Source: an uncultured delta proteobacterium
Lineage (GTDB): Bacteria; Desulfobacterota; RBG-13-43-22
Direction of reading: 5' to 3'
Length of the DNA stretch: 64,000 nt
Assembly (NCBI GenBank): GCA_963843145.1
Contig: CAWJJC010000005.1
Location: 96,001-160,000 of the forward strand
This document shows, piece after piece, positions 4,214-20,043 of the stretch (position 1 is its first letter; each line of letters begins with the position of its first letter). The position numbers and the translations under genes are program-made. The notes under the pieces were generated by a model that was not told the origin of the DNA, ran no database searches, and saw only the letters and a list, made by a program, of their open reading frames with translations.

Positions 4214-5104
4214 CTACCGCTCCTCTCTCGGCCAAGGCTGATAGGGCCGGGTCTTCCAGCGCTGGTGGACCCAGAAATAATGATCCGGGTAGCGGCGGGC
4301 CATGGTTTCGATTACCCGATTATACTGGGCCGTGTTTTCCTCGATGTTCTTGGTCCGATCGTCGAACTCCAGCCAGGGCACCGGAGGTTGGAGTTCCAAC
4401 CGATAGTGCCCGTTTCCCTCGTAGACCATGAAACCCGGCACCACCGGCGCTCCCGTGCTGAGGACCAACAGGGCCAGCCCCTTGTTGGTGCAGGCCCGTC
4501 GCCCAAAAAAATCGACAAAGACTCCGTCTTTCCAGTCGATGTTCTGGTCCATCAAGATCCCCAGGTTTTTTTTCTCCCTGAGGAGTTTAATCAAGACCCG
4601 CATGGACCGCTCTTTGGATACCACTCGGTTGCCGCTGACCTCCCGCAGGGCCCGGGAAAGTTTTTCCGCCGGTTCGAAATCCAGCGGCTTGACGATCACA
4701 TAGGTCGGCTCAAAAAAGTACCCGAAGCTGATCGGCATCAGTTCCCAGCACCCGAAATGGCCCGTTAGAAAAGCGATCCCCTTCCCCTGGGCCTTGGCCG
4801 CCTGGTAGTGTTCGATCCCCGTAAAGCGGACGTATTTTTTGACGCGCTCGGCACTGTAGCGGAACAGATACACGGCCTCGAAAAAGTGTCGGCCGATTCC
4901 CTGGAAGCATTGTTTCACCAGGTTCCAGCGTTCGGCTTCGGATTTTTGATCCCCAAATGCCGTGGTAACATTCTGAAAAGCGATTTGCCTTCTTCTTTTC
5001 AACAGGTGAAATAGTCCGGTCCCCAACCCTTCGCCGAGAAACAAACCGATCTTCCTGGGGATAAGGGAAAGGAGGATGACCAAAACATACAGCAGTCTAT
5101 ACAC
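4214..5104 (-). CDS. lpxL: Lipid A late acyltransferase (LpxL/HtrB family)
   Basis: TGHFGCWE, ILMDQ, VDFFG, YPDHYFWVHQRWKTRP; GTG start at 5104 with GGAGG RBS. Confidence 0.85.
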   Translation of the reverse strand: MYRLLYVLVILLSLIPRKIGLFLGEGLGTGLFHLLKRRRQIAFQNVTTAFGDQKSEAERWNLVKQCFQGIGRHFFEAVYLFRYSAERVKKYVRFTGIEHYQAAKAQGKGIAFLTGHFGCWELMPISFGYFFEPTYVIVKPLDFEPAEKLSRALREVSGNRVVSKERSMRVLIKLLREKKNLGILMDQNIDWKDGVFVDFFGRRACTNKGLALLVLSTGAPVVPGFMVYEGNGHYRLELQPPVPWLEFDDRTKNIEENTAQYNRVIETMARRYPDHYFWVHQRWKTRPYQPWPREER

Positions 5105-6201
5105 GATCGCCGACCTCCCAAAGGTCCCGGACCGATTCAAAGACTTCCGCGGCTTCGACGGCCTGCAGGCAATCGAACCGTCCCTGGCAAGTAGGCTTTT
5201 TATAACAGGGGCTGCACGACAATCTTTTGTAATGAATCCTGTTGCCCTTCCCGTAAGGTCCGGTAAAGCGCGGGTCGTCAGGTCCGTAAATCCCCACCAC
5301 CGGTACACCTAAGGCCACCGCCAAATGGAGGGGTCCGGTGTCGGACCCCACTACCAGCCGGCATCTTTCCAACACTGCCGCCAAGTGCCGCAGGGAGAGC
5401 CGGCCCAAGCCGTCGATGACTCCCCGGCCGGAAATCGGGACTTGACCCAGAAACCGCTGCCGATCCTGCGCGTCCCCCAGCAGGACCACCTGAACCCCTT
5501 CCAAAAGGGAAAGGCGCTCCAGCAGAGCGGCCCATTGTATTAAGGGGCCAGCATTTTTGGGGCAGGGAGGCTCCCACCTGCAGGCCGATGATTTGTTCGC
5601 CTTCCCTCACCCCTTGGGTCTGGAGAAAATGGTCGGCCCAGGTCCTCTCTTCCGAGCGAAGGCCCAGTTGGAAATCCGGGGGTCCCGGAGGGCACCCCAG
5701 GAATTCAGCCACTTTCAGATTGCGGTCCACGGCGTGCAAACCCTCCCCTTCCGGGATCTGCCGGGAAACCCAATAACTGAATTCCTTCAAGCCGGTGCAG
5801 CCCAATCGGCGGGGGGCCCCGGCCAGAAGGGCCATCAGCCCCGATTTGGCCAACCCCTGCAAATCGATGGACAGGTCAATCCGCAGGTCCCTCAAGGCCC
5901 GGCGCAAGCGGACCAACTCTCTCCAGGCCTCGTCCCAGGACTTCCGGGCCAGAAGGGCTTGAATCTTTTTCCGGGGATAGACCACGACTCCCTCCAACAG
6001 GGGATGGGCTTCCAGAATCGGGGCGCAGCGGTCCTCCACCACCCAAAATAACTTGATCCGGGGAAAGCTCGTTTTCAGGCGGGAGGCCACCGGCAGCGCA
6101 TGGATCACGTCTCCCAGGGAGGTCAACTTGATCATGAGGATCCGTTGGCTCCCCTGAGGGTCAATCAAACCCGTGAACCGACCGGACCGTTTCCAGAACA
6201 T
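5097..6201 (-). CDS. GT9 heptosyltransferase (WaaC/WaaF-like), split by a 1-nt frameshift at about 5545
   Basis: N-half IKLTSLGDVIHALP, DLQGLAKS, KCWP (5278..6201); C-half GSDTGPLHLAVALG, IYGP (5097..5504). Removing one base from a homopolymer run joins the two halves. Confidence 0.85.
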
Positions 6202-7270
6202 CCCTGACCTCGATGGCTTTCATGCAGGTTAACTCCGAACAATTGCGTTCCCGGCAGGGACTGCAGGAAACCGGTTTTCGGATGATTCGGGCTTTGTTGC
6301 CGAAAGGTCCGGTCAACTCCGGTCGGGTCGGCCCGATAATGGCCACCACGGGCCGATCCAAAGCCGCGGCCAGGTGCATGGGACCGGCCTCGTTGCCGAT
6401 GAAAAGGTCGGTTTCCTTAAGCAGGGCGATCAACTGTTTGAGACTCAGCCGATTGACCAGATCAATCACCGGCACTCGGATCAGGGAAAAAAGCGCTTCG
6501 AACAGACGGCCTTCCTGGCTGCCGCCTGCGGCCCCCCCGATCACGGCCAACCGCAGGCCGGGGGTCAATCCCAGGGTATTGATCAATTCGGCAAAGCGGT
6601 CCACCGGCCAACGGCGGGAGAGCCAACCGGCTCCCGGATGAATGACCACCAGCCGTTCCTGCTCCCGACGGCCGGCCGAGACCAGGATTTCCCGAACCTG
6701 ATTTTGGGCGGTCTCGGAAATCGTCCATTGAAATTGGACCTCGTCGGTCGGTCCTCCCAGAAAATCAATGACGAGCAGATTTCTTTCCACGGTATGCCGA
6801 TCATTGGGGCGGGGGGGAATCTCTCGAGAGAAAAATCCGGACAATTCTTTCATCCCGGTGGTATTGGCCGACCCTATCCGCCAGCGGGCCCCGGCCATCC
6901 AGACCAGCAGGGCCGACTTGGCCAAACCATGCAGATCGATGGACAGGTCAAAAGATCGGGAGCGCAGCTCCCCTTTTAACCGACGAAAGGTTTGCCACAC
7001 CCCTTTCCAGGCCCTCTTTTTGAGGGCCTCCTCTATCGCCTTAAAGGGGACTACCAGCACTTCATCCAGGTCCGGGTGCCCCTCCTCAACCAGATCCCGG
7101 CAGCGGTCATCCACCAGCCAGGTGATCCTGGCCCGGGGATACGTCCGGCGCAGCGCGGACAGTGTGGGCAAACTGAAAACAATATCCCCGATCCGGCTCG
7201 GCTGAATCAGGAGGATGCGTTTGATTTCGCCCTTAGGGGGAGGCGAGGACGGTTTTCGGAATAGACTCAT
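6161..7270 (-). CDS. GT9 heptosyltransferase-family protein
   Basis: SRIGDIVFSLP, HPGAGWLSRRWP, GNEAGPMHLAAAL, CSPC. Confidence 0.88.
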   Translation of the reverse strand: MSLFRKPSSPPPKGEIKRILLIQPSRIGDIVFSLPTLSALRRTYPRARITWLVDDRCRDLVEEGHPDLDEVLVVPFKAIEEALKKRAWKGVWQTFRRLKGELRSRSFDLSIDLHGLAKSALLVWMAGARWRIGSANTTGMKELSGFFSREIPPRPNDRHTVERNLLVIDFLGGPTDEVQFQWTISETAQNQVREILVSAGRREQERLVVIHPGAGWLSRRWPVDRFAELINTLGLTPGLRLAVIGGAAGGSQEGRLFEALFSLIRVPVIDLVNRLSLKQLIALLKETDLFIGNEAGPMHLAAALDRPVVAIIGPTRPELTGPFGNKARIIRKPVSCSPCRERNCSELTCMKAIEVRDVLETVRSVHGFD

Positions 7271-9601: not shown

Positions 9602-10768
9602 TTAGGATCGTCTTACCTTTTTTATTAGCCAGGCCGCCGCCTGTCTTAAGCGAGTCAACCCGGTGAGCTCTTTTTCCAGATAGGTCAGGCGGAACAGGTA
9701 AATACCGATAAGACCAACGATAATGTTGGGCAACCACAGACCGATAACCGGCGGCAGCGCCCCCCGCTCCCCTAAGCTGAAGGCCAGGGATAAAAATAAA
9801 TAGTAAATGAAGAAGACCGCTCCTCCCAGGATAATGGCCCAGGGACGACCGGCTACCTTGGACTGCAGGCCCAGGGGCAAGGCGATCATGCCCAAAACCA
9901 GGCAGGCAAAAGGGAGGCTGAACTTTTTGTAATATTCGATCTGGTAATTATAATACCTTTTTTCACTGGGCGAGGTTATGCGGATTCTTTCTCTTAACTC
10001 CGGGAGATACATTTCGGTTTCGCTTTTTTCCCTCTTTTCCTGGTCCGAGACGATCTGCTCCAGAGGCAGGAATAGATCATAGCTCTTAAAGAAAACAGTC
10101 TGGGCGCTTTTGGATTTCAAAGAAACGTTATAAATATGCCCGTTTTCCAGTCGCAGGTTCAAGGAACGCTCTTTGGGATTAGGGATCAGCCACCCCCGTT
10201 TGGCGATAATCGTCTGAGGAAGGTCTTTTTCCCGTTGGTCAAAGATAAAGACATCTTCCAATAAACCGTCCCCGTGCACCCTCTGAATATAAAAAACCAG
10301 CTCTTTAAATTCGTTATAAAAAACCCGTTCTTTCAAACTGACCTTGGCCTGCACTACGGCGACCTGAAACAGGAGATTTTTCAGCGAGTGCTCCCCCCAG
10401 GGCTGGGCAACCATGGCCGCAAACCCGGTCAGGATAGTTCCGGAGAGGCTCAAAATCAAAACCGGCGGCAAAAGCTGAAAGAAACTTAATCCCGAGCCCT
10501 TCAAGGCCGTGACCTCGTTATCGCTGGCCAGGCGCAAAAAACCTAAGAGGATCGAGATAAAAAATGACATGGGTATAATATAGACCATCAAAAAAGGAAG
10601 CGTATAGCCCAGCAGGCGGAGGATATTGAAGACTCCGACCCCCTTTTGAACGATCATCTCGATGAGCTGCATCAGGTTCCCTAAAATAAAAATCAAGGTG
10701 AACACGGTCAAGGTTACCCCGAAAGGGGTCAGAATTTCCTTAAGGATGTATTTGGTGATAATTCGCAT
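9602..10768 (-). CDS. lptF: LPS export ABC permease LptF (LptF/G family)
   Basis: IITKYILKEI, LASDNEVTALKGSGLS, KKFSLPFAC, WLPNI. Confidence 0.88.
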   Translation of the reverse strand: MRIITKYILKEILTPFGVTLTVFTLIFILGNLMQLIEMIVQKGVGVFNILRLLGYTLPFLMVYIIPMSFFISILLGFLRLASDNEVTALKGSGLSFFQLLPPVLILSLSGTILTGFAAMVAQPWGEHSLKNLLFQVAVVQAKVSLKERVFYNEFKELVFYIQRVHGDGLLEDVFIFDQREKDLPQTIIAKRGWLIPNPKERSLNLRLENGHIYNVSLKSKSAQTVFFKSYDLFLPLEQIVSDQEKREKSETEMYLPELRERIRITSPSEKRYYNYQIEYYKKFSLPFACLVLGMIALPLGLQSKVAGRPWAIILGGAVFFIYYLFLSLAFSLGERGALPPVIGLWLPNIIVGLIGIYLFRLTYLEKELTGLTRLRQAAAWLIKKVRRS

Positions 10769-10822
10769 CGTTTTTTTTGGACGCTTCACCCCTTGGGGTG
10801 GGTTTCCCCGCCTATTGGCTAA

Positions 10823-11042
10823 GGCGGCCGGGTCTCGGCGAAAAGGTTTTCCAAAGGTACTCCGGACTTCGAATCCGGGCCAAAATTACTAACTCTATAT
10901 AAGGCAGGCCCAAACTCAGAGACTTTTGATGCCTCCCAGGCTGGCCCTGCCTCCGGAAAGATTTAAAAACACGGGGGCCGGGTTAGAACCGAAAAAGTCC
11001 AGTCTGAGGGGGAGAAAACCTTTTCGCCGAGACCCGGCCGCC
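10823..11042. repeat. 220-bp palindromic MITE-like element, copy 1 (29-bp perfect terminal inverted repeats)
   Basis: GGCGGCCGGGTCTCGGCGAAAAGGTTTTC at 10823-10851 and its exact reverse complement at 11014-11042; interior is homologous to the reverse complement of 19832-20043. Confidence 0.85.
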
Positions 11043-11130
11043 GCGGAGGCTCGATTTCAAGTTAATCTACTTAAGGGGATGGACACCCATCCCAAGAGAC
11101 GAACAATCCTTCGTTGCTTTGCCTAGAAAA

Positions 11131-12597
11131 TCAATTCCTAACATAAAAAACTTCGAAGGTTTTGACCACCTTTTCTTTCCGGAAGATCTGGATCTCCCGG
11201 AGTTTATCGATTTTTGAAAAAAGACCCCGGGCTTTTTCCCGGTCCTGGGGACAATGGTCCTGATAACAGACCAGCAGGGCCCCCTGATTTTTCAGCTCGG
11301 GCAGCGAAGTCCAGATATTGCGCGCCGATTTGCCGAAAGAATAGGGCCAGGGATGCTGGGGCGTGTAAAAGGAAATGACCCCGGCCAGTTGGTAATCGTC
11401 GGCGACCACGAACACCTTTTCCTGATTCGGAAAGACCTGGGCGTATTCCCGCCCTAAACCCTGCCCCAATTCCCTCCAACCCCTCATTTCCAGGGTCCGG
11501 TCCTGTTGGGCGGCGACCGGCAGGTAAGGGAAGAAGATATGGACGGCGATCAGCATCACCGGAAACCAACCGGTCAAAAACACCGCCCCTCCCCCTACCC
11601 ATTTTCGGACCCTGGATATCCGGGGCCACTTTTCCGCCAGGCTTTTTCCCAAAAGGACCGCCCCGAAAAGCCAGGCGACGTTCCCCCAACTGGGGTCGGT
11701 GTACTTTCCTTTAAAGGCCGCCAGGGTGAAAACCAGCAACGGTACCCCGGTCAAAAAAAGCAGATAGGCCGAAGGGTCATCCCGCCAGCCGCCCCCGCGA
11801 CAGGCCCGGGTCCAGGCCCCGGCCAGGAGGAAAAACAACACCGGCCCCAGAATCAGGGGTTGCCCGAACACGAAAGCCAGGGCCTGAATTCCGAACTTTC
11901 CCCCGGTCAAGCCTTTTTCCAACTGCGATCCCAGAGAAATCCAGCCGTTCAGATAGTTCCAGTAGAGAAAGGGGGAAAACAAAAGGAGCCCTAAACCCAG
12001 GGCGGCCCAGAGGTGCGGATTGCGGAAGGCCTTTCGTCTTTCCGGCGAAGACACCAAAAACAAAAAGGCGGCTCCCAAAAACAGAACGGCGGTGAACTTG
12101 GAAAGGAGGGCCAGTCCCCAGGCGATTCCGGCCCGATAATAGGCCGCGTTGCTTTTTGAGGCCCAAGCCCGCCAAAACTCCATGGCCGCCCAACTGTAAA
12201 AAACCATCAGGGGCGTATCAATGATAAAGATGATACTGCCCACGGCATACAAGGGAGCCGCCTCCAGCAGCAGGACGCTAAAAAAAGCCGCGCGGACGCC
12301 GAACTGCCTCCGGGCTAATTGAAAGATCAGGATAAAAACCAACAGGGTCAGAACCTGGGACCCGATTTCCAGTGCCCATTGATTAACCCCCAGCAGGGTG
12401 GTGCACAACCGGATCGCCCAAGCGACCATGGGCGGATGTTCGTAGTAGCCCCAGGACAGGAAACGCGACCAGACCCAGTGGTCGGCTTCATCCGGGTGCA
12501 GGTCCAGCAGCATTCCCAGAGACAGCCAAATGAGCAGGTGGCCGGCCAGCAGGGCGTAAAAGCCCCATTGATACGGTCGATCGTTATTGGAAATCAT
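11131..12597 (-). CDS. ArnT/GT83 (GT-C, PMT_2-type) polyprenyl-phosphate-sugar glycosyltransferase
   Basis: LHPDEADHWVWS..LSWGYYEHPPMVAW, DTPL, LALLSKFTA; many TM segments. Confidence 0.85.
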   Translation of the reverse strand: MISNNDRPYQWGFYALLAGHLLIWLSLGMLLDLHPDEADHWVWSRFLSWGYYEHPPMVAWAIRLCTTLLGVNQWALEIGSQVLTLLVFILIFQLARRQFGVRAAFFSVLLLEAAPLYAVGSIIFIIDTPLMVFYSWAAMEFWRAWASKSNAAYYRAGIAWGLALLSKFTAVLFLGAAFLFLVSSPERRKAFRNPHLWAALGLGLLLFSPFLYWNYLNGWISLGSQLEKGLTGGKFGIQALAFVFGQPLILGPVLFFLLAGAWTRACRGGGWRDDPSAYLLFLTGVPLLVFTLAAFKGKYTDPSWGNVAWLFGAVLLGKSLAEKWPRISRVRKWVGGGAVFLTGWFPVMLIAVHIFFPYLPVAAQQDRTLEMRGWRELGQGLGREYAQVFPNQEKVFVVADDYQLAGVISFYTPQHPWPYSFGKSARNIWTSLPELKNQGALLVCYQDHCPQDREKARGLFSKIDKLREIQIFRKEKVVKTFEVFYVRN

Positions 12598-13460
12598 TAC
12601 CCTCCCAGCGGATCCGCCGGCTCGGCCGCCTGTTTCAGGGCCGGTAAAACGTCGGATAGGGATTGCAGCCGAAAACGGGCCAGCAAGGTTTCAAACTTTT
12701 TTCGGGGATCCCCCGGGTGCAGGTGCAGCCAGCGGGCCTTCAATTCCCGGATCAACCGCTTCGGCCGGGGCCAGAGATCCCAGGGGTGGAAATAAAACAA
12801 ATTATAACGGCCTTGTTGCAGAACCCGGCGGGCAAAAAACCGAATAGCCGCCCAGGGCCAGAGATTAAAATAAAGTCCCCCCGAATACGGGACCCGCCGG
12901 GTTCCCCAGGCATAGACCGACACCGGGATCTCCAGGAGTTTAAGGGAGCGGCCTTGGACCCGGGGATAAAAAGGGCGCAGCGGGGCGGTGGGAATACCGT
13001 ACAAAAAATTCTTGATCGGGAAAATGGAAGCGTCGTAGGCCAGGCCAAAGGATTCGAGGATTTCCAGGGCCCAGAGGGTATCCGGCCCGATGGACCAGGA
13101 AGGGGCGCGGAAGCCTAAGGGCGGATTTCCGGCCAGGTCCCGGAAAACCCGGAGCGAGACTTCCAGGTCCCGGCGAAAACCCTCGGGTCCCCGATCCCGC
13201 AGGAGATGATGCTCATACCCGTGGAGGGCCAGTTCCTGTCCGGCCTCCAGGATCAGTTCGCCGATCCTGGGGCGCTTCTCCAATAAGCGCCCCAGGACAA
13301 AGAAGGTCCCCCTCGCCCGATGCGTGCGGCAGAGCGCTAAAATCCCTTGAAGACGATCCACCAGCGAGCGCTGGTCCTCTTGCCGGTCGAAGCGCTCAAA
13401 ATCGGTGCGCGGATAATTGATATGATACCAGTCTTCGATATCAAAGGTGAGGAGGTTCAT
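12597..13460 (-). CDS. CE4 polysaccharide deacetylase (PEP-CTERM-locus/DUF3473-like)
   Basis: LTFDIEDWYH, TFFVLG, LHGYEH, GFRAPSWSI, YDASIFP, FYFHPWD. Confidence 0.9.
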   Translation of the reverse strand: MNLLTFDIEDWYHINYPRTDFERFDRQEDQRSLVDRLQGILALCRTHRARGTFFVLGRLLEKRPRIGELILEAGQELALHGYEHHLLRDRGPEGFRRDLEVSLRVFRDLAGNPPLGFRAPSWSIGPDTLWALEILESFGLAYDASIFPIKNFLYGIPTAPLRPFYPRVQGRSLKLLEIPVSVYAWGTRRVPYSGGLYFNLWPWAAIRFFARRVLQQGRYNLFYFHPWDLWPRPKRLIRELKARWLHLHPGDPRKKFETLLARFRLQSLSDVLPALKQAAEPADPLGG

Positions 13461-13500
13461 TACCGCCTAATTTATGCCGTTCAGGATGTGAGCAGAGATG

Positions 13501-13644
13501 AACATCGAACATCGAACGTCCAACATCGAATGTTAAATGAAAAATGATGAAGAAACAGACTTGATCTGGAAGAAAGTCTGATTTCAAATACCAGAATTGG
13601 ATGTTTGTTTTTCATTCGATGTTGGACGTTCGATGTTCGATGTT
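13501..13644. repeat. Heptamer-based palindromic element (32-bp perfect inverted arms of AACATCG units)
   Basis: AACATCGAACATCGAACGTCCAACATCGAATG at 13501-13532; exact reverse complement at 13613-13644. Confidence 0.85.
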
Positions 13645-13698
13645 TGTCTTGTTTATTGACCCTTCCGAAGTCCATCCGGAATAAAAATAACTGAGCGA

Positions 13699-14070
13699 TT
13701 ATAGGCCCGGATCCCCATCCCGTCGGGAAAGCGTGTCCACCCGGTCCCTAAGCAGAGCCACTTCCTGGGCCAGGATGCGTTTTTTGGTCTTAAAGTCCGA
13801 AAGCTGGATGGAAAAATGAATTAGAATAAAAATGGTGACTACATTGAAGAAAAGGAACAACGCGGTCGGGCCGTAGTCAATCCCCAGCCAATGGGCGACC
13901 CGGTCGATCAGGGGATGGAAAAATGACAACCCTAAAAACACGCCGGCGATCATAATCCACAAAAAAGAATATTCTTCCATCAGCCTTCTCCGCCGGATCA
14001 GGGAAAAAATCCAAAAGAACAGAAACAAGGAAAGCAGCAGGGTGCTGATTTTCAACAGAACAAAATTCAT
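13699..14070 (-). CDS. DUF2304 small membrane protein (GT2 partner, GacJ/Rv3632-like)
   Basis: LIRRRRLMEEYSFLW, LGIDYGPTALF, C-terminal LAQEVALL; 3 TM segments. Confidence 0.85.
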   Translation of the reverse strand: MNFVLLKISTLLLSLFLFFWIFSLIRRRRLMEEYSFLWIMIAGVFLGLSFFHPLIDRVAHWLGIDYGPTALFLFFNVVTIFILIHFSIQLSDFKTKKRILAQEVALLRDRVDTLSRRDGDPGL

Positions 14071-14073
14071 GGG

Positions 14074-14787
14074 TTACCTCCGCCGACGTTTTTTGAAGGA
14101 AAGGATGGAGATCAAGACCCGAACCATGTAATAAACGCTTTTTATCGGGGTGATGGAAGAAACTCCGGCCGGACGGGTGCGCATCTTGACCGGTATCTCC
14201 ACCAGGCGGCAGCCGCTGGCATCCAGGTAACTGATCGATTCCGGTTCCGGGTATTCACCCAGATAATTTTTGGCCAGGATCGCGATGGCCCGTTCCGAAT
14301 AGGCCCGGAATCCGGAAGTATTGTCCACGATCCGCTGGCCCACGATCAAGGCGTTGGCCCCTTGAAAAATCAGGTTGCCCAGACGGCGCAGCCAGGACCC
14401 CCGGTAGCCGGTCGGGGCGATGAAACGGGAACCGATCACCAGGTCCGCTTTTTGATCCTCCAGGGTTTTTAGCAGCCGGGGAGCTTCTTCGGCCGGATGT
14501 TGATAATCCGCGTCGATCTGGATAGCGGCGGTGTAGTGGTGGGCCGCGGCATATTGAAACCCGGTCTGCACCGCCGCGCCAATCCCCAGGTTAAAAGGCA
14601 GGTCAATCACTCTGACCCCCGCCTGTCTGGCCCGAGCGGCGGTCTGATCGCTGGAGCCGTCATTGATGACCAGGATGTCAGGCTCGGGGAGGTGGGCGCG
14701 GATGTCTTCCAGCACCCGGGAGATATTGTCTTCCTCCTGATAGGCCGGGATAATAATGAGGACCTTGGCCAAGCGCTGGTTTTCCAT
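14074..14787 (-). CDS. GT2 polyprenyl-phosphate glycosyltransferase (DPM1/ArnC/GacI-like)
   Basis: IIIPAYQEEDNI, INDGSSDQT, NLGIGAAVQTG, DADYQHP, VIGSRF, DNTSGFRAY, YPEPE; ATG at 14787. Confidence 0.9.
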   Translation of the reverse strand: MENQRLAKVLIIIPAYQEEDNISRVLEDIRAHLPEPDILVINDGSSDQTAARARQAGVRVIDLPFNLGIGAAVQTGFQYAAAHHYTAAIQIDADYQHPAEEAPRLLKTLEDQKADLVIGSRFIAPTGYRGSWLRRLGNLIFQGANALIVGQRIVDNTSGFRAYSERAIAILAKNYLGEYPEPESISYLDASGCRLVEIPVKMRTRPAGVSSITPIKSVYYMVRVLISILSFKKRRRR

Positions 14788-15843
14788 CAGGCGATAACCA
14801 ACCGGCGGATTAAACGGCTCCCCAGCCATTGGGTCCAGGACAAAGGAAGTCGAGGCCAGAACGTTGCCGCCAGGTGGTAGGTGAGGGACTGCCGGGCTTC
14901 CCCTATCGAGCGGACTCTCCCGCCGTTTTTGTCCCGTGGGTAGAGGTAGCGCAAGGGGCGGGGCTGGGCCTTCCACTGGCGTTTAAATTGATAGGTCCCC
15001 GAACCCGACTGGCTGCGGCAAAAACTGAAATAAGAGGCCCCCGACTCCCAGGTGTCCCGAAGGGCGGTCTGGTACAATAACTGGTTCGGATGTTCGTTTT
15101 GATGGTCCGTCAAACTGGCTACATAGGGGGCGCTGACACTGTCCCGATAACGGAAAAGGAGCATCCCGGCCACCGGAACCGCCCCTTTATAGACCAAGAG
15201 CAATCGGCAGCGATCAGGAAACACCTGCAGGATTTTTCTGAAAAAACCTCAACGGATAAACCGGGAAAAACAGTTCCCGCATCCTTATTGAAAAAACCCG
15301 ATAAAAATCTTCAAGCAGCTCTTTTCCCACGCCCTGGCGCACCACCAGGCCCGACTGCCGGGCTTTTCTGGCCTGGCGCAGACGGGGGCCGACCTGTTTT
15401 TCAAAGACCTTCCAATCACCCGGCAATTCCAGAATCATTTCCACATGCTCTTGATTGGCCGGGATCTCGGGGTCCTGGAGAGCCTCTAATTCCCGCAATT
15501 CCACGGTATCGGCCTTCAAGGTTTCCGCTTGGGCGTTGACGGCCGCCAGCATCCCCTCCCGCAGCGCCGGGTCGAGGGTCCATAAACCGGCCCGGGTCTG
15601 GTAAGGCAGGGAAATGAGATGCCGGCCGCCGCCGATCCAGGGGCTCTTCATCAGGACCAAAGGGCAGAGGCCTCGAACCCGACCCCGGTCTTCGACCAGG
15701 AGATAATAGGTCTTGAGACCCAGCGATTCCTCATAGACCCGGCGCCAACCATAGAGCAAGGAATAGGGGGCCTCCGCAAACTGCTCCAGCCCTTGATCCC
15801 AGGCCGTTTCCCCCTCCCCTGCCGACAGCCATTTCCAATCCAC
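14787..15843 (-). CDS. FemAB-related GNAT-fold protein (PEP-CTERM-locus type), split by a 1-nt frameshift at about 15240
   Basis: RHLISLPY, VELRE, RQARKARQSGL, DFYRVFSIRMREL, PNQLLY, FCRSQSGSGTYQFKRQWKA. The shift lies in a T6/A5 homopolymer tract. Confidence 0.8.
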
Positions 15844-15846
15844 CGG

Positions 15847-17577
15847 TTAATCCTCGTCGCCCTTATTCCGGAACTGAATCTCATAGATCCTCCGGTATTC
15901 CCCATTCAATTGCCACAGCTCCTCGTGTCTTCCCTGCTCCACGATCCGGCCGTCGGCGATGACGATAATCCGATCGGCCTTGCGGATGGTGGAAAAGCGA
16001 TGGGCGATGACCAGGGTTGTCCGCCCGGTCATCAGGTTTTCCAGTGCCCGCTGAACCTCGGCCTCCGAATCGGAATCCAGGGCCGAAGTGGCTTCATCCA
16101 GGATCAGGATGGGGGCGTCCTTCAGTAGCGCCCGGGCAATGGAAATCCGCTGGCGCTCGCCGCCGGACAAACGGATCCCCTGTTCGCCGATGAGGGTTTC
16201 CATTTTATCCGGGAGCCGGTCGATAAAATCATAGGCATAAGCGGCTCGGGCCGCCTGGAGTATCTCTTCCTCGCTTTTTTGGGGCGATCCATAACGAATA
16301 TTGTTACGAACCGTATCGTTGAAGAGGATGGTTTGTTGGGTCACGATGCCGATCTGTCGGCGTAAGGAGGCCTGGGTAAACGACTGGATCGGCCGGCCGT
16401 CGATCAGGATTTCCCCTTCCGTCCTCTCGTAAAAACGCGGAATAAGGTTGACCAGAGTCGTTTTACCGCCGCCGCTGGTCCCGACCAGGGCGATGACTTC
16501 TCCGGAGCGGACTTCCAGATTGATGTGCCGGAGGACCCAATCCCGGTCGTAACGGAAGGAAACGTCTCTAAAGACAATGCCCTGCCGTACTTCCCGGAGC
16601 GGCGCGGCTCCGGCCTGATCCTCAATCTCCGGTTTCAGATCCAGGACCTCGTAAACCCGAACGGCGGCCGCCAGACCCTGCTGAATGGTGTTGTTGACCC
16701 CGCTTAAGTGTTTAATCGGTTCGTAAAGCATCAACAGGGCCGTCAGAAAGGAAAAGAAAGTTCCGGGGGTGGAGGTCCCCTGGATGACGTTATAGCCGCC
16801 ATACCAGATGATGGCGGCAATCCCGATGCCCCCCAGGAATTCCATGATGGGGGAAGACATGGATTTGACCGAAACGTCTTTCATGGTCAAATCAAAAAAT
16901 CGTTGGTTGCTCTCCCGGAAGCGTTCCACTTCCCGGTCCTCCATTCCAAAGGCCTTGACGATCCGGTTTCCGGACAAGGTTTCGTGGAGATGGATGGAGA
17001 TGACCGCCATGGTTTTTTGACTCTGGGTGCTGATCTTCCGGAGCTTGCGCCCGAATTTAACAATCGGCAGCACCGCGATCGGCAGCACCAAAATGGCTAA
17101 GCCGGCCAATTGCCAGTCCCGGTAGAAAATGACCGCCACCAGACCGATAATGGTAAACAGGTCTTTCAGTATCCCGGTGACGGCACCGGAAACCGCCCCC
17201 TGAATCAGGTTGACATCGTTGATGATCCGGGACATCAACAGCCCGGTGGAGGTCCGATCAAAATAAGAAAGGGACAACCGCTGCAGGTGGCTGTACAGGT
17301 TTTCCCGGAGGTTGGCCACAATCCGCTGGCCCACGTAGCTCATCAGGTAGGACTGGCCGTAACCGAACCCTCCTTTGACGATATAGAGCAGGATAATAAA
17401 GGGCGGCAACAGGGAAAGGGTAGCCATATTCTTCTGGAAAAAAATATCGTCCAGCACCGGTTTGACCAGATAGGCCATCAGGGCGGTGACCCCGGCTACC
17501 ACGGCCATGCAGACCATGGCCAGAACCAGGCGGAACCAATAGGGTTTGACTAAAGAGAGTAGCCGTTCCGTCATCAT
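15847..17577 (-). CDS. msbA: Lipid A flippase ABC transporter
   Basis: TM domain plus GTSGGGKTT, LSGGERQR, ILDEATSALD; directly follows lpxB. Confidence 0.92.
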   Translation of the reverse strand: MMTERLLSLVKPYWFRLVLAMVCMAVVAGVTALMAYLVKPVLDDIFFQKNMATLSLLPPFIILLYIVKGGFGYGQSYLMSYVGQRIVANLRENLYSHLQRLSLSYFDRTSTGLLMSRIINDVNLIQGAVSGAVTGILKDLFTIIGLVAVIFYRDWQLAGLAILVLPIAVLPIVKFGRKLRKISTQSQKTMAVISIHLHETLSGNRIVKAFGMEDREVERFRESNQRFFDLTMKDVSVKSMSSPIMEFLGGIGIAAIIWYGGYNVIQGTSTPGTFFSFLTALLMLYEPIKHLSGVNNTIQQGLAAAVRVYEVLDLKPEIEDQAGAAPLREVRQGIVFRDVSFRYDRDWVLRHINLEVRSGEVIALVGTSGGGKTTLVNLIPRFYERTEGEILIDGRPIQSFTQASLRRQIGIVTQQTILFNDTVRNNIRYGSPQKSEEEILQAARAAYAYDFIDRLPDKMETLIGEQGIRLSGGERQRISIARALLKDAPILILDEATSALDSDSEAEVQRALENLMTGRTTLVIAHRFSTIRKADRIIVIADGRIVEQGRHEELWQLNGEYRRIYEIQFRNKGDED

Positions 17578-18725
17578 CCGCTCAGCATTTCCAGGGCCAT
17601 CCGGGCTACCCGGCGGGAAGCTCCCGGCCCTCCCAATTTTTGTCTGACCAAGTCCATTTTCGTCCGCAGGTCCTCTCGTTGGGCCGGGTCGTTCAGCAAG
17701 CGCCAGGCCTCTTCGGTCAGGGCCTGCGGATGGGCCTGATCCTGGACGAATTCGGAAATAATTTTTTCCCCGGCAATCCAGTTCACCAGTCCGATATAAG
17801 GCACTTTGATCAATCGTTTGGCAATCCAATAGTTGACCGCTGAAACCTTATAGACAATGATCATCGGGACCCCAAAAATAGCCGCCTCCAGGGTGGCCGT
17901 TCCCGAAGTCACCAGGACCAGATCAGAACGTTTCAGGGCCGCCGGGGAAACCCCGGAGATCAGCCGCAGGGAAAGCCCCCGCTCCTGATAGGGAGCGGCC
18001 TTTTCCCGGATGACCTGGGGATCGAGCGAAGGGGCTATGGGCAGCCAAAAAACCAACGAGCCCGCGAATCGTTGCTTCAAGGCCCAGGCGGTATCCAGCA
18101 GGACCGGCAGGAGTTGATTGACTTCCGTCGGACGGCTTCCCGGCAACAGTCCGATGACGGTACTTTCCGGTTCGACCCCGGGGAGATCGGGGTCGGCTTT
18201 CAGGGAGAGGGTCTCTTCCAGCACGTCCCCCAGGGGATGACCCACAAATTCCACCGTCATCCCGCGGGCCCGGTAAAATTCCTCTTCAAAAGGAAGGATG
18301 ACGGCCATGCGGTCCACTACCCGGGCAATGGTTTTGACCCGGCCGGCGCGCCAGGCCCAGACCTGGGGACTGATATAAAAAAGGACGGGGATCTTCCGCC
18401 GGTGGGCGAAACGGGCCAGGCGCAAATTGAGTTCGGGATAATCAATCAACACCAGCAGATCGGCGGCCCGATCCACCAGGGTTCGCTTTACCTTTTGAAA
18501 AGCCCGGAAAATATGAGCGATCTTGGCCACCACCTCGGTAAAGCCGACCACGTTCAGCGGTGGGGGATAGACCATCTCCACCCCCGCCTCCCTCAAGCGA
18601 GGTCCCCCCAGTCCAAAAAAAACGAGGGATCCCCCTAATTCCTTTAAGGCCTTGACCAGGGCGGCCCCGTGCAGATCCCCGGAGGCCTCGCCCGCGATAA
18701 TGCAGATTTGTTTAATCGGTTTCAC
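17574..18725 (-). CDS. lpxB: Lipid-A-disaccharide synthase
   Basis: AGEASGDLHG, IDYPELN, YISPQVWAWR, VGHPL, LLPGSR, SGTATLE; start approximate. Confidence 0.95.
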   Translation of the reverse strand: MKPIKQICIIAGEASGDLHGAALVKALKELGGSLVFFGLGGPRLREAGVEMVYPPPLNVVGFTEVVAKIAHIFRAFQKVKRTLVDRAADLLVLIDYPELNLRLARFAHRRKIPVLFYISPQVWAWRAGRVKTIARVVDRMAVILPFEEEFYRARGMTVEFVGHPLGDVLEETLSLKADPDLPGVEPESTVIGLLPGSRPTEVNQLLPVLLDTAWALKQRFAGSLVFWLPIAPSLDPQVIREKAAPYQERGLSLRLISGVSPAALKRSDLVLVTSGTATLEAAIFGVPMIIVYKVSAVNYWIAKRLIKVPYIGLVNWIAGEKIISEFVQDQAHPQALTEEAWRLLNDPAQREDLRTKMDLVRQKLGGPGASRRVARMALEMLSG

Positions 18726-18730
18726 TAAGT

Positions 18731-19768
18731 CTACGGTTGGAAGCCGTTCGTTCCCGAACCGAGCCAGGATTGGAAGGCCTCTAATTCCGGCAGATTCTCC
18801 GGTATCCAGGAGGCACTGCCCAGGGAACAATTCTTCTCTATTTCCCGGTTAACCTCCAAAGCCAGGGCCAAGGCCCTCCGGCCGTCTTCTCCGGAAACCA
18901 AGGGCGGAGTTCCTTCCCGAATGGACTGGATAAACGATCGCAGTTCCAATTCCAAGGCGTCCTGTTCCGGGAAGGACCCTTCTTCAAAAACAAAGGGCAT
19001 TCCGGGCGGCACTTTCTCCGGCCCTTTCTCCAACCGCACCAATCGATAGGCCTTGGCCCCCAAGTCCAAAGACAGGTAGGCCCCCGGCTGAAATATCCGC
19101 AGCTTGCGCATGGCCGTGATGGATATCCGACTGGCCGTGATATTGGCCACACCGCCATTTTGAAATTGGATGCGGGCGTTGGCGATATCCACCTGGTTGG
19201 AAACTACCGGTACTCCGACGGCCTGGACATTTTCCGGAGGGGAGTCGGTTAAATGAAGGATCAAATCCAAATCATGGATCATCAGGTCCAGGACCACATT
19301 CACATCGATCCCCCGTTCTTTAAAGGGCGACAGACGATGGGTCTCAATAAATAGCGGATGGTGGATGAGGTGCCGGACCTTCAAATAGGCCGGATTAAAC
19401 CGCTCCAAATGGCCGACCTGGATCAGGCAGCCCTTTTGCCCGGCTAAGGCAATCAGTTCCTCGGCCTCAGCCAAGGTAGAGGTAATGGGTTTTTCGATCA
19501 GTATCGAAACCCCGGCCTCCAGACAGTCCTTGGCAATGGGACTATGGTCTTGGGTGGGCACGACAATACTGACCGCCTCCACCTGAGGAAGCAGGTCCCG
19601 GTAATCCAGGTAACCGGGAATCTGGAATCGCTCGGTGATTTCCCGTAAACAGTCCGGACGGACCTCCGCTACCCCGCCTATTTCCACCTCCTCCATCCGG
19701 GAGTATTTTTCCAGGTGAAACCGCCCCAGGTACCCCATACCGATAATGCCAACCTTTATTTTTTTCAA
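18731..19768 (-). CDS. Gfo/Idh/MocA oxidoreductase, GnnA-like (UDP-GlcNAc 3-dehydrogenase candidate)
   Basis: GMGYLGRFH, LIEKP, QVGHLERFNP, DLMIHDLD, TASRIS; lies between lpxI and lpxB; TTG start inferred. Confidence 0.8.
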   Translation of the reverse strand: MKKIKVGIIGMGYLGRFHLEKYSRMEEVEIGGVAEVRPDCLREITERFQIPGYLDYRDLLPQVEAVSIVVPTQDHSPIAKDCLEAGVSILIEKPITSTLAEAEELIALAGQKGCLIQVGHLERFNPAYLKVRHLIHHPLFIETHRLSPFKERGIDVNVVLDLMIHDLDLILHLTDSPPENVQAVGVPVVSNQVDIANARIQFQNGGVANITASRISITAMRKLRIFQPGAYLSLDLGAKAYRLVRLEKGPEKVPPGMPFVFEEGSFPEQDALELELRSFIQSIREGTPPLVSGEDGRRALALALEVNREIEKNCSLGSASWIPENLPELEAFQSWLGSGTNGFQP

Positions 19769-19831
19769 CCGGAAAAGTTCCTTTTCATACTGACGTTTCG
19801 CCCTTTTGGGTGGCCCCCTCCATATCTGGAC

Positions 19832-20043
19832 TGGCCGCCGGGTCTCGGCGAAAGGGCTTTCCACATTGCTTTTTAGGTTCTAACCCGGCCCCCGGGTTAT
19901 CAAATCCTCCAGGAGGTAGGGCCAGCCTGGGGGCATCAAAAGTCACTGAATATGGGCCTGCTTTAATTAAAGTTAGTAATCTAGGCCCGGATTCGAAGTC
20001 CGGAGTACCATTGGAAAGCCCTTTCGCCGAGACCCGGCGGCCA
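19832..20043. repeat. 212-bp palindromic MITE-like element, copy 2 (32-bp perfect terminal inverted repeats)
   Basis: TGGCCGCCGGGTCTCGGCGAAAGGGCTTTCCA at 19832-19863 and exact reverse complement at 20012-20043. Confidence 0.85.

Follow-up and report, generated by a model that had tools for sequence, protein, structure and literature searches.

We report a five-gene cassette in the lipid A operon of an uncultured soil delta proteobacterium of the Desulfobacterota, found in a 64,000-nucleotide stretch of contig CAWJJC010000005.1 (assembly GCA_963843145.1) that was analyzed as a whole and is hereafter termed the window. The cassette (positions 11131-15843) holds six open reading frames (ORFs), which represent five co-oriented genes slotted between msbA and lptF. 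These code, in order, for a FemX-like tandem-GNAT transferase (hereafter Fem, whose gene is split in this assembly), a GT2 glycosyltransferase, a small membrane protein with a DUF2304 domain, a de-N-acetylase combining CE4 and DUF3473 domains, and a PMT_2/GT83-like GT-C glycosyltransferase. The cassette is real and conserved, and constitutes a known type of decoration system joined to a predicted aminoacylation step so far undescribed for lipopolysaccharide (LPS). With a confidence that stops a little short of even, we propose that it decorates a glycan in the periplasm by way of a lipid carrier, in the manner typified by Arn, Gtr, GacIJL and PpgS-Rv3632 but with an extra aminoacylation, and that its sugar would be delivered to lipid A or the LPS core.

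The assignment on which this proposal hinges is that of Fem, and both sequence and modeled fold support its grouping with aminoacyl-tRNA-dependent transferases. When a profile built from 12 Fem orthologues was run on all PDB sequences, the only matches with E<1e-6 were aminoacyl-tRNA-dependent enzymes, namely FemX of Weissella (FemX_Wv, 5.8e-9), the peptide synthases Sbb17/Sba18 (7e-8) and FemX of Staphylococcus aureus (FemX_Sa, 7.4e-7). An AlphaFold2 model of the intact orthologue from a sister genome, G002 (predicted local distance difference test score 86.2, predicted template modeling score 0.87), displays a tandem-GNAT architecture with no coiled-coil arm, and its 14 best Foldseek matches are likewise all aminoacyl-tRNA-dependent (FemX, Sbb17/Sba18, FemA and MprF). 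FemX_Wv heads this list (E 1.2e-15, template modeling score 0.61-0.66) and Sbb17 attains a TMt of 0.74-0.77; the Sbb17/Sba18 structures matched are those crystallized with the amino sugar streptothrisamine. In the hidden Markov model alignment, F286-K287 of Fem (K287 by the numbering of the L022 orthologue) aligns with F304-K305 of FemX_Wv, and this Phe-Lys pair is invariant in 81/81 sequences; Lys305 of FemX_Wv is described, in the available portion of PMC12945691, as catalytic and as the sole reactive residue of the active site. The FemABX-type call made for this gene in an earlier note on this DNA, a reading of the nucleotide letters with their ORF translations, is thus borne out by its sequence and fold relatives. 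Neither Fem nor the CE4 protein shows a signal peptide, an N-terminal hydrophobic stretch or a membrane segment when their sequences are inspected, so that both are predicted to work in the cytoplasm, the compartment with a supply of aminoacyl-tRNA. The isoelectric points of Fem proteins of this module type (9.2-9.9) are uninformative on tRNA binding, the neighboring enzymes being equally basic.

With respect to named families, the two Fem halves score 98.3 and 84.9 bits against TIGR03019 (96.2 and 92.3 in the genome search), below its cut-off of 260.35 bits. The FemAB model PF02388 (cut-off 24) matches the intact module-type relatives from loci L172 and L069 at 32.4 and 30.8 bits and that from L067 at 19.6 bits, while the split fragments in the window match only PF13480.

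The remaining four proteins point to a polyprenyl-phosphate-sugar pathway, and the domain calls for all five, as previously given, hold in Pfam and NCBIfam profile matches. The best NCBIfam match of the GT2 protein is PpgS, a polyprenyl-phosphate-GalNAc synthase (99.4 bits, cut-off 370), with ArnC trailing (49.5 bits, cut-off 529); its PDB relatives are all polyprenyl-phosphate glycosyltransferases, i.e. the dolichol-phosphate-mannose synthase DPMS, ArnC and GtrB, and it keeps its predicted catalytic residues, D43 and the D92-x-D94 motif. The DUF2304 protein scores well over the PF10066 cut-off of 25.5 bits and adjoins a short GT2 gene. Such proteins, GacJ and Rv3632, bind and stimulate the synthases of GlcNAc-phosphate-undecaprenol and GalNAc-phosphate-polyprenol, according to the accessible part of bioRxiv 10.1101/180810, and the pairing of GT2 with DUF2304 pointed out in the earlier note fits this GacI/GacJ and PpgS/Rv3632 paradigm. 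The CE4 protein aligns with positions 1-271 of the 272 in TIGR03006 (202 bits, cut-off 276.2), and its predicted catalytic residues D7, E9, H80, H84, R118-A-P120 and H225 are each kept in at least 18 of 19 sequences. Among PDB sequences the GT-C protein matches ArnT alone (5ezm, E 2.9e-5); against the lipid IVA 4-amino-4-deoxy-L-arabinose transferase model NF009784 (cut-off 567) it scores 30.5 bits. The GT2 synthase and the GT-C transferase share one operon, as they do in three-component systems for periplasmic glycosylation from polyprenyl-phosphate sugars of the Gtr, Arn and GacIJKL type.

The N-terminal half of Fem found matches in 16 of the 41 genomes searched, including 12 of the 20 from the same family and all three from the same genus. 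In 10/10 of the family loci fetched, the order msbA-fem-GT2-DUF2304-CE4-GT83-lptF-lpxK is kept at 55-96% protein identity, and the same lpx-type order recurs in nine of 52 metagenome loci; the lpx linkage that the earlier note wished to see checked in relatives therefore holds across the family. The slot between msbA and lptF is kept across four genera. Among five of the eight Fem-less genomes of the family, three (G006, G010 and G014) retain msbA-GT2-DUF2304-CE4-GT83-lptF, with about 25-45 nt from msbA to GT2; in another (G020) the slot has other content, and in the last (G008) it is cut by the contig end. As three of the five keep the other four genes in place, these four seem to work as a unit to which Fem is an add-on: the cassette consists of a core of four genes and an optional fifth. 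The ratio of nonsynonymous to synonymous substitution rates (dN/dS) of fem (0.13-0.25) compares with 0.06-0.24 for its neighbors, leaving out msbA of the pairs L027/L030 and L026/L030, and indicates that Fem has diverged in step with them under purifying selection. In a sample of 251 genomes from the phylum, GT-C orthologues with more than 50% identity were confined to the organism's own family. Weaker GT-C matches outside it (at most 34% identity) were dismissed as paralogues, for a DUF2304 or CE4 gene adjoins them in 0/24 loci examined.

Fem itself ranges far more widely. One scan of a species-level genome collection yielded 585 confirmed relatives; we surveyed the flanks of the best 80, of which 77 are at most 39% identical to the query and which are spread over many phyla. 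A CE4/DUF3473 gene lies within the flanks of 42 of these 80 loci, mostly directly upstream of fem, an arrangement already known from PEP-CTERM systems.

In the pathway that we propose, the GT2 enzyme and its DUF2304 membrane partner would, by homology, make polyprenyl-phosphate-linked N-acetylhexosamine at the cytoplasmic face of the membrane, and the cytoplasmic CE4-DUF3473 enzyme would strip the N-acetyl group to give polyprenyl-phosphate-hexosamine. In what would be the novel step, the cytoplasmic FemX-like enzyme would N-aminoacylate the freed amine, with aminoacyl-tRNA as the donor. The lipid-linked sugar would then be flipped, though the cassette has no evident flippase gene, and the GT-C protein may move it to lipid A or the inner core on the periplasmic face, between flipping by MsbA and extraction by the Lpt system, as its gene position suggests. 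Relatives devoid of Fem would transfer plain hexosamine. The same order of synthesis, deacetylation, (amino)acylation and transfer had been advanced earlier, and it agrees with the Fem-less four-gene core and with the placement of CE4-DUF3473 beside Fem in many phyla. The acceptor put forward with it is another matter: as the set of five genes is met outside lipid A operons too, lipid A or core as the acceptor derives from gene position only, and the sugar, donor and amino acid are likewise predicted.

A close parallel is the addition of L-Ara4N to lipid A by ArnC/ArnD/ArnT (with ArnE/F). There a GT2 enzyme charges undecaprenyl phosphate with the sugar, whose amine is then exposed by a CE4-type deacylase in the cytoplasm, and a GT83 GT-C enzyme makes the periplasmic transfer to lipid A; the cassette GT2 and GT-C have ArnC and ArnT, respectively, among their closest relatives of solved structure. 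However, the cassette GT2 lacks the membrane tail and is paired with DUF2304, a DUF3473 domain is joined to the deacylase, genes for ArnA/ArnB and ArnE/F are lacking, a FemX-like gene is added, and the scores against ArnC and ArnT are low, as given above. In the Francisella FlmF2/NaxD/FlmK and Bordetella LgmA-C systems, a hexosamine is placed on a lipid A phosphate after undecaprenyl-phosphate-N-acetylhexosamine has been deacetylated to undecaprenyl-phosphate-hexosamine, and the deacetylase is of the YdjC type rather than CE4+DUF3473. These systems resemble the pathway proposed here in leading from the N-acetylated through the free lipid-linked hexosamine to lipid A via an ArnT orthologue, but have neither a DUF2304 partner nor an aminoacylation step. 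For Francisella, the available portion of PMC4402001 describes transfer of the amino sugar to lipid A by the ArnT orthologue FlmK in a pathway via undecaprenyl-phosphate-galactosamine.

The front end of the cassette has a counterpart in GacI/GacJ/GacL of Streptococcus pyogenes and PpgS/Rv3632 of Mycobacterium tuberculosis, where, in the sections of the literature available, a short GT2 with a DUF2304 protein makes polyprenyl-phosphate-N-acetylhexosamine for a GT-C enzyme acting outside the membrane; GacI and PpgS, like the cassette GT2, have no membrane tail. These systems differ in decorating Gram-positive or mycobacterial wall polysaccharides and in lacking a Fem-like enzyme; GacIJL also lacks a deacetylase. 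The additional enzyme is paralleled by FemX_Wv and by Orf11/Sbb17/Sba18, which aminoacylate an amino sugar in streptothricin-type pathways and, like FemX_Wv and as far as the published portions available describe them, share the tandem-GNAT fold, the catalytic Lys after Phe, and the formation of an amide bond on a substrate amine. They are only 13-18% identical to Fem and act on soluble nucleotide or antibiotic substrates as opposed to an envelope-bound polyprenyl-linked sugar.

The closest named families are the FemAB (TIGR03019) and deacetylase (TIGR03006) of XrtA/PEP-CTERM systems, which both match over their full length and whose adjacency is widespread. The cassette proteins nevertheless fall under both cut-offs, are not beside the exosortase homologue of their genome, and the module-type Fem proteins form a clade of their own. 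The accessible part of PMC3684757 lists a deacetylase-FemAB pair as an annotation in its gene table; in the literature searched we found this pair as an annotation only, with no test of its function, and a search for DUF3473 turned up no paper. The earlier note had remarked on these two families occurring in a window with no PEP-CTERM/exosortase locus. A genome profile search found no second FemAB/DUF3473 locus, in keeping with that remark, which is to be qualified by an exosortase-family (PF09721) homologue elsewhere in the genome (G000:C3:5079-5615; G000 denotes the source assembly), adjoined by neither a FemAB nor a DUF3473 gene.

Several observations weigh against our proposal, and we set them out here together with the alternatives to it. 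All five proteins fall short of the curated cut-offs for TIGR03019, TIGR03006, PpgS, ArnC and ArnT. Nor does any of them match, in Pfam or NCBIfam, a family of dedicated flippases (GtrA, ArnE/F or Wzx-like), a result confined to the cassette since no search for one was made elsewhere in the genome. As for the donor, the same pathway might run with acyl-CoA or acyl-acyl carrier protein, the N-acetyl group being swapped for another acyl group. Such an exchange would accord with the placement by Pfam of the C-terminal half of Fem in PF13480, named a GNAT acetyltransferase domain, and with the CoA-using tandem GNATs that figure among the Foldseek matches from rank 15 down. The acyl-CoA P-loop (Q/R-x-x-G-x-G/A, in the consensus defined in PMC4964394, of which a part was available) is absent from 9/9 module-type Fem proteins and present, per alignment column, in at most four of 81 sequences. 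However, the same part of that source records CoA-using GNATs with atypical P-loops, so the absence of the motif is weak evidence. Nonetheless, we regard N-acyl exchange as improbable in light of the exclusively aminoacyl-tRNA-dependent enzymes among the significant PDB matches and the 14 best fold matches, the FemX-type Phe-Lys pair found throughout, the missing P-loop, and the lack, by Pfam and NCBIfam, of any acyl-activating or FabG-like gene in the cassette. The aminoacyl-tRNA donor predicted for Fem is suggested indirectly, by its nearest relatives and the missing CoA P-loop.

The fem gene is split in the source assembly and in G018, and missing from the three core-bearing relatives, and is therefore dispensable. 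This raises a second alternative, that fem is a true pseudogene in the source organism, where only the four-gene core would work and, like that of the Fem-less relatives, equip LPS with a hexosamine bearing no substituent. The frameshift that the earlier note put at 15240 is present in the assembly, its exact place being one extra base at 15238 by alignment to three same-genus genomes, all of which encode an intact Fem of 351 residues at 88-96% identity. The insertion is not a simple change in homopolymer length, which speaks for a genuine lesion, as does the evident tolerance of Fem loss in the family. Nor does any near-identical read or contig cover the site: none of the public sequencing runs held half or more of the sampled words (best 0.31), no RNA run turned up, and no contig at least 99% alike spans it, although one metagenome contig that is 93.6% alike does, without the extra base. 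Conversely, dN/dS against G002 is 0.10 for one half and 0.08 for the other, which does not exceed the values of the neighboring genes, and neither half has further stops or indels. Of the 20 family-type copies (the source assembly, ten genome loci and nine metagenome contigs), 18 are intact, and the orthologues are intact at 351-367 residues. Moreover, these metagenome-assembled genomes (MAGs) show a pattern that fits assembly indel noise: the source assembly has, within the same 19 kb, a second one-base insertion relative to G002 in the third heptosyltransferase gene (5100-6219), 22 nt of the essential lpxA are duplicated in G002, G001 gives split matches for GT83 and lptF, and G003 does so for heptosyltransferase II. 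Because of the low dN/dS in both halves and the indels elsewhere, including that in lpxA, we consider the insertion at 15238 probably an assembly artefact (or a very recent event) rather than a real inactivation, and take a true pseudogene to be unlikely, if somewhat less so than N-acyl exchange. Programmed frameshifting was set aside, the relatives being simply without the extra base.

The third alternative retains the lipid-linked donor but has it serve O-antigen, capsule or exopolysaccharide (EPS), or a protein, the position in the lpx operon being incidental. Outside its own family the module does indeed sit in polysaccharide loci and not in lpx operons. The order GT4-GT2-DUF2304-fem-CE4-PMT_2 is seen in a KSB1 MAG (L069) and an unclassified bacterium (L067), and the metagenome scan recovered the same GT2-DUF2304-fem-CE4-PMT_2 order in L168, L169 and L170. 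L172 has GT4-Wzx-fem-GT2-DUF2304-CE4-PMT_2, so that the gene order of the window recurs there amid polysaccharide genes; another three contigs (L171, L173 and L174) end before the module is complete. In L067, L069, L168, L169 and L172 the five families adjoin genes for GT4 enzymes, a Wzx-type flippase, a methyltransferase and sulfate activation, and no lpx genes. Nine DUF2304-linked Fem proteins, including the lpx type, form one clade in a tree of 81 sequences (support 0.967), and GT2, DUF2304, Fem and CE4 are 31-49% identical between module types, whereas the GT-C proteins can scarcely be aligned across the three module types (E 0.001 and 0.79), which suggests that the acceptor differs by lineage and is not fixed by the module. 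Conserved donor synthesis coupled to an acceptor-specific transferase would correspond to the Gtr-type pattern.

An acceptor other than lipid A or core would also be compatible with the score of the GT-C protein so far under the ArnT equivalog cut-off. Against this, the slot between msbA and lptF is kept across the four genera with the GT-C 51-59% identical between them, only a few bases part the cassette from msbA and, in relatives, from lptF, and the only PDB sequence match of the GT-C is a lipid A transferase. Furthermore, the GT-C of the lpx-type cassette is lineage-specific and cannot be aligned with those of the polysaccharide loci, as would be expected were its acceptor different from theirs. 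We thus rate an incidental position as no more probable than N-acyl exchange, and retain lipid A or core as the tentative acceptor in the present family. As a separate observation, an ORF of more than 1500 residues with GDSL lipase and fibronectin type III domains lies downstream of the KSB1-type five-gene module in L169 (L169:10518-15035), with genes for ATP sulfurylase and APS kinase upstream of the module; these surroundings suggest a sulfated glycan locus.

How well a cell resists cationic peptides and metals is governed by cationic-sugar decorations of lipid A and core, which also influence the properties of the outer membrane. Going a step beyond the proposal above, and with correspondingly greater reserve, we entertain the possibility that the cassette embodies the first aminoacyl-tRNA-dependent step in LPS biogenesis, in which a FemX-like enzyme would aminoacylate polyprenyl-phosphate-hexosamine at the cytoplasmic face and an N-aminoacyl-hexosamine would eventually reach lipid A or core, and that the widespread deacetylase-FemAB pair of PEP-CTERM/EPS loci likewise frees the amine of a sugar and then N-aminoacylates it. 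The literature searched yielded no tRNA-dependent or FemX-type aminoacylation of LPS, lipid A or a lipid-linked sugar. In that literature the addition of amino acids to LPS used no tRNA and was represented by one example, Vibrio AlmEFG, which is the only case, and a tRNA-independent one, given for LPS in the available portion of a review on tRNA-dependent lipid aminoacylation (PMC6103681). The earlier statement that no pathway with a FemAB step is known consequently stands, within the literature searched, for LPS and lipid-linked sugars, but has to yield to a precedent for FemX-like aminoacylation of an amino sugar in streptothricin-type antibiotic pathways, as presented in the accessible text of PMC12945691. 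If correct, the proposal would tie substrates of translation to LPS remodeling, extend the Arn/Gtr-type toolbox by a new reaction, and supply a function for the FemAB-like/DUF3473 pair in the EPS loci of many phyla. The presence and absence of Fem within one bacterial family offers a natural comparison for lipid A mass spectrometry.

The features of the locus are collected in Table 1. The five co-oriented genes between msbA and lptF, all on the minus strand, and their junctions were recovered exactly as previously recorded: the msbA stop at 15847 faces the fem start at 15843, the TGA of fem and the ATG of GT2 have base 14787 in common, GT2 ends at 14074 and DUF2304 starts at 14070 (3 nt past the GT2 stop), and base 12597 is common to CE4 and GT83.

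Table 1. Cassette genes, neighboring genes and repeats, with positions in the window
Feature	Coordinates	Strand	Remarks
FemX-like tandem-GNAT transferase, N-terminal part	15214..15843	-	209 aa to the frameshift; TIGR03019 positions 2-185 of 330, 98.3 bits
FemX-like transferase, C-terminal part	14787..15224	-	145 aa; PF13480 36.3 bits; TIGR03019 positions 191-329 of 330, 84.9 bits; carries the invariant Phe-Lys
One-base insertion splitting the fem gene in the assembly	15238..15238	-	From alignment to three same-genus genomes
GT2 polyprenyl-phosphate glycosyltransferase (predicted)	14074..14787	-	237 aa, without membrane-spanning tail; PF00535 90.9 bits
DUF2304 small membrane protein, GacJ/Rv3632-type GT2 partner (predicted)	13699..14070	-	PF10066 82.7 bits
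Dispersed palindromic repeat in the DUF2304-CE4 gap, outside the pathway	13496..13649	.	42-nt arms; 118 matches in own genome
CE4 + DUF3473 de-N-acetylase (predicted)	12597..13460	-	287 aa, no signal peptide; PF01522 47.5 bits; PF11959 88.9 bits
PMT_2/GT83-like GT-C glycosyltransferase	11131..12597	-	488 aa; PF13231 133.1 bits (cut-off 26.1)
Second dispersed repeat in the GT83-lptF gap, outside the pathway	10795..11125	.	44 matches in own genome, 73-84% identity
msbA (lipid A flippase), upstream neighbor	15847..17829	-	TIGR02203 629.9 bits
lptF (LPS export permease), downstream neighbor	9602..10789	-	TIGR04407 271.9 bits

The earlier note had allowed for a single repeat-holding gap among these tight junctions. 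The DUF2304-CE4 gap (13461-13698) is such a gap, but a second one of 341 nt, between the GT83 end at 11131 and the lptF start at 10789, had gone unmentioned. The first contains an inverted repeat whose 42-nt arms are 90% complementary, forming a palindromic element like miniature inverted-repeat transposable elements or repetitive extragenic palindromes, with GAACATC-type sub-repeats; its matches are scattered over many contigs of the genome. The second holds a repeat some 300 nt long that is bounded by terminal inverted repeats of 29 nt. The palindromic element is absent from this place in other genera, where the DUF2304-CE4 gap measures only about 10 nt (L026, L030 and L031), and in the sister genome G002 the GT83 and lptF genes abut. 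Since the gaps are about 10 nt or absent in other genera, we interpret both repeats as mobile insertions and not as parts of the system. Rfam searches of the cassette returned only plant microRNA-precursor models on the palindromic repeat, far below their gathering scores, which we dismissed as chance hairpin look-alikes. A scan of 10700-16000 for promoters and terminators was uninformative: it gave four promoter-like sites where shuffled sequences gave 2.1±1.4, and 14 terminator-like sites where they gave 10.2±3.4.

The cassette is embedded in a larger set of LPS genes, with lpxD-fabZ-lpxA-lpxI-oxidoreductase-lpxB farther upstream and lptF, lpxK, then heptosyltransferase genes and lpxL downstream. 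The msbA ORF as listed has a TTG start overlapping lpxB, and the match to the MsbA model begins only at residue 88; its real start is probably the Met-Met near 17577. The oxidoreductase gene between lpxI and lpxB (18731-19864) codes for a Gfo/Idh/MocA protein whose best match is UDP-GlcNAc 3-dehydrogenase (200 bits, below the cut-off). The enzyme appears GnnA-like and hints at a lipid A backbone with 2,3-diamino-2,3-dideoxyglucose.

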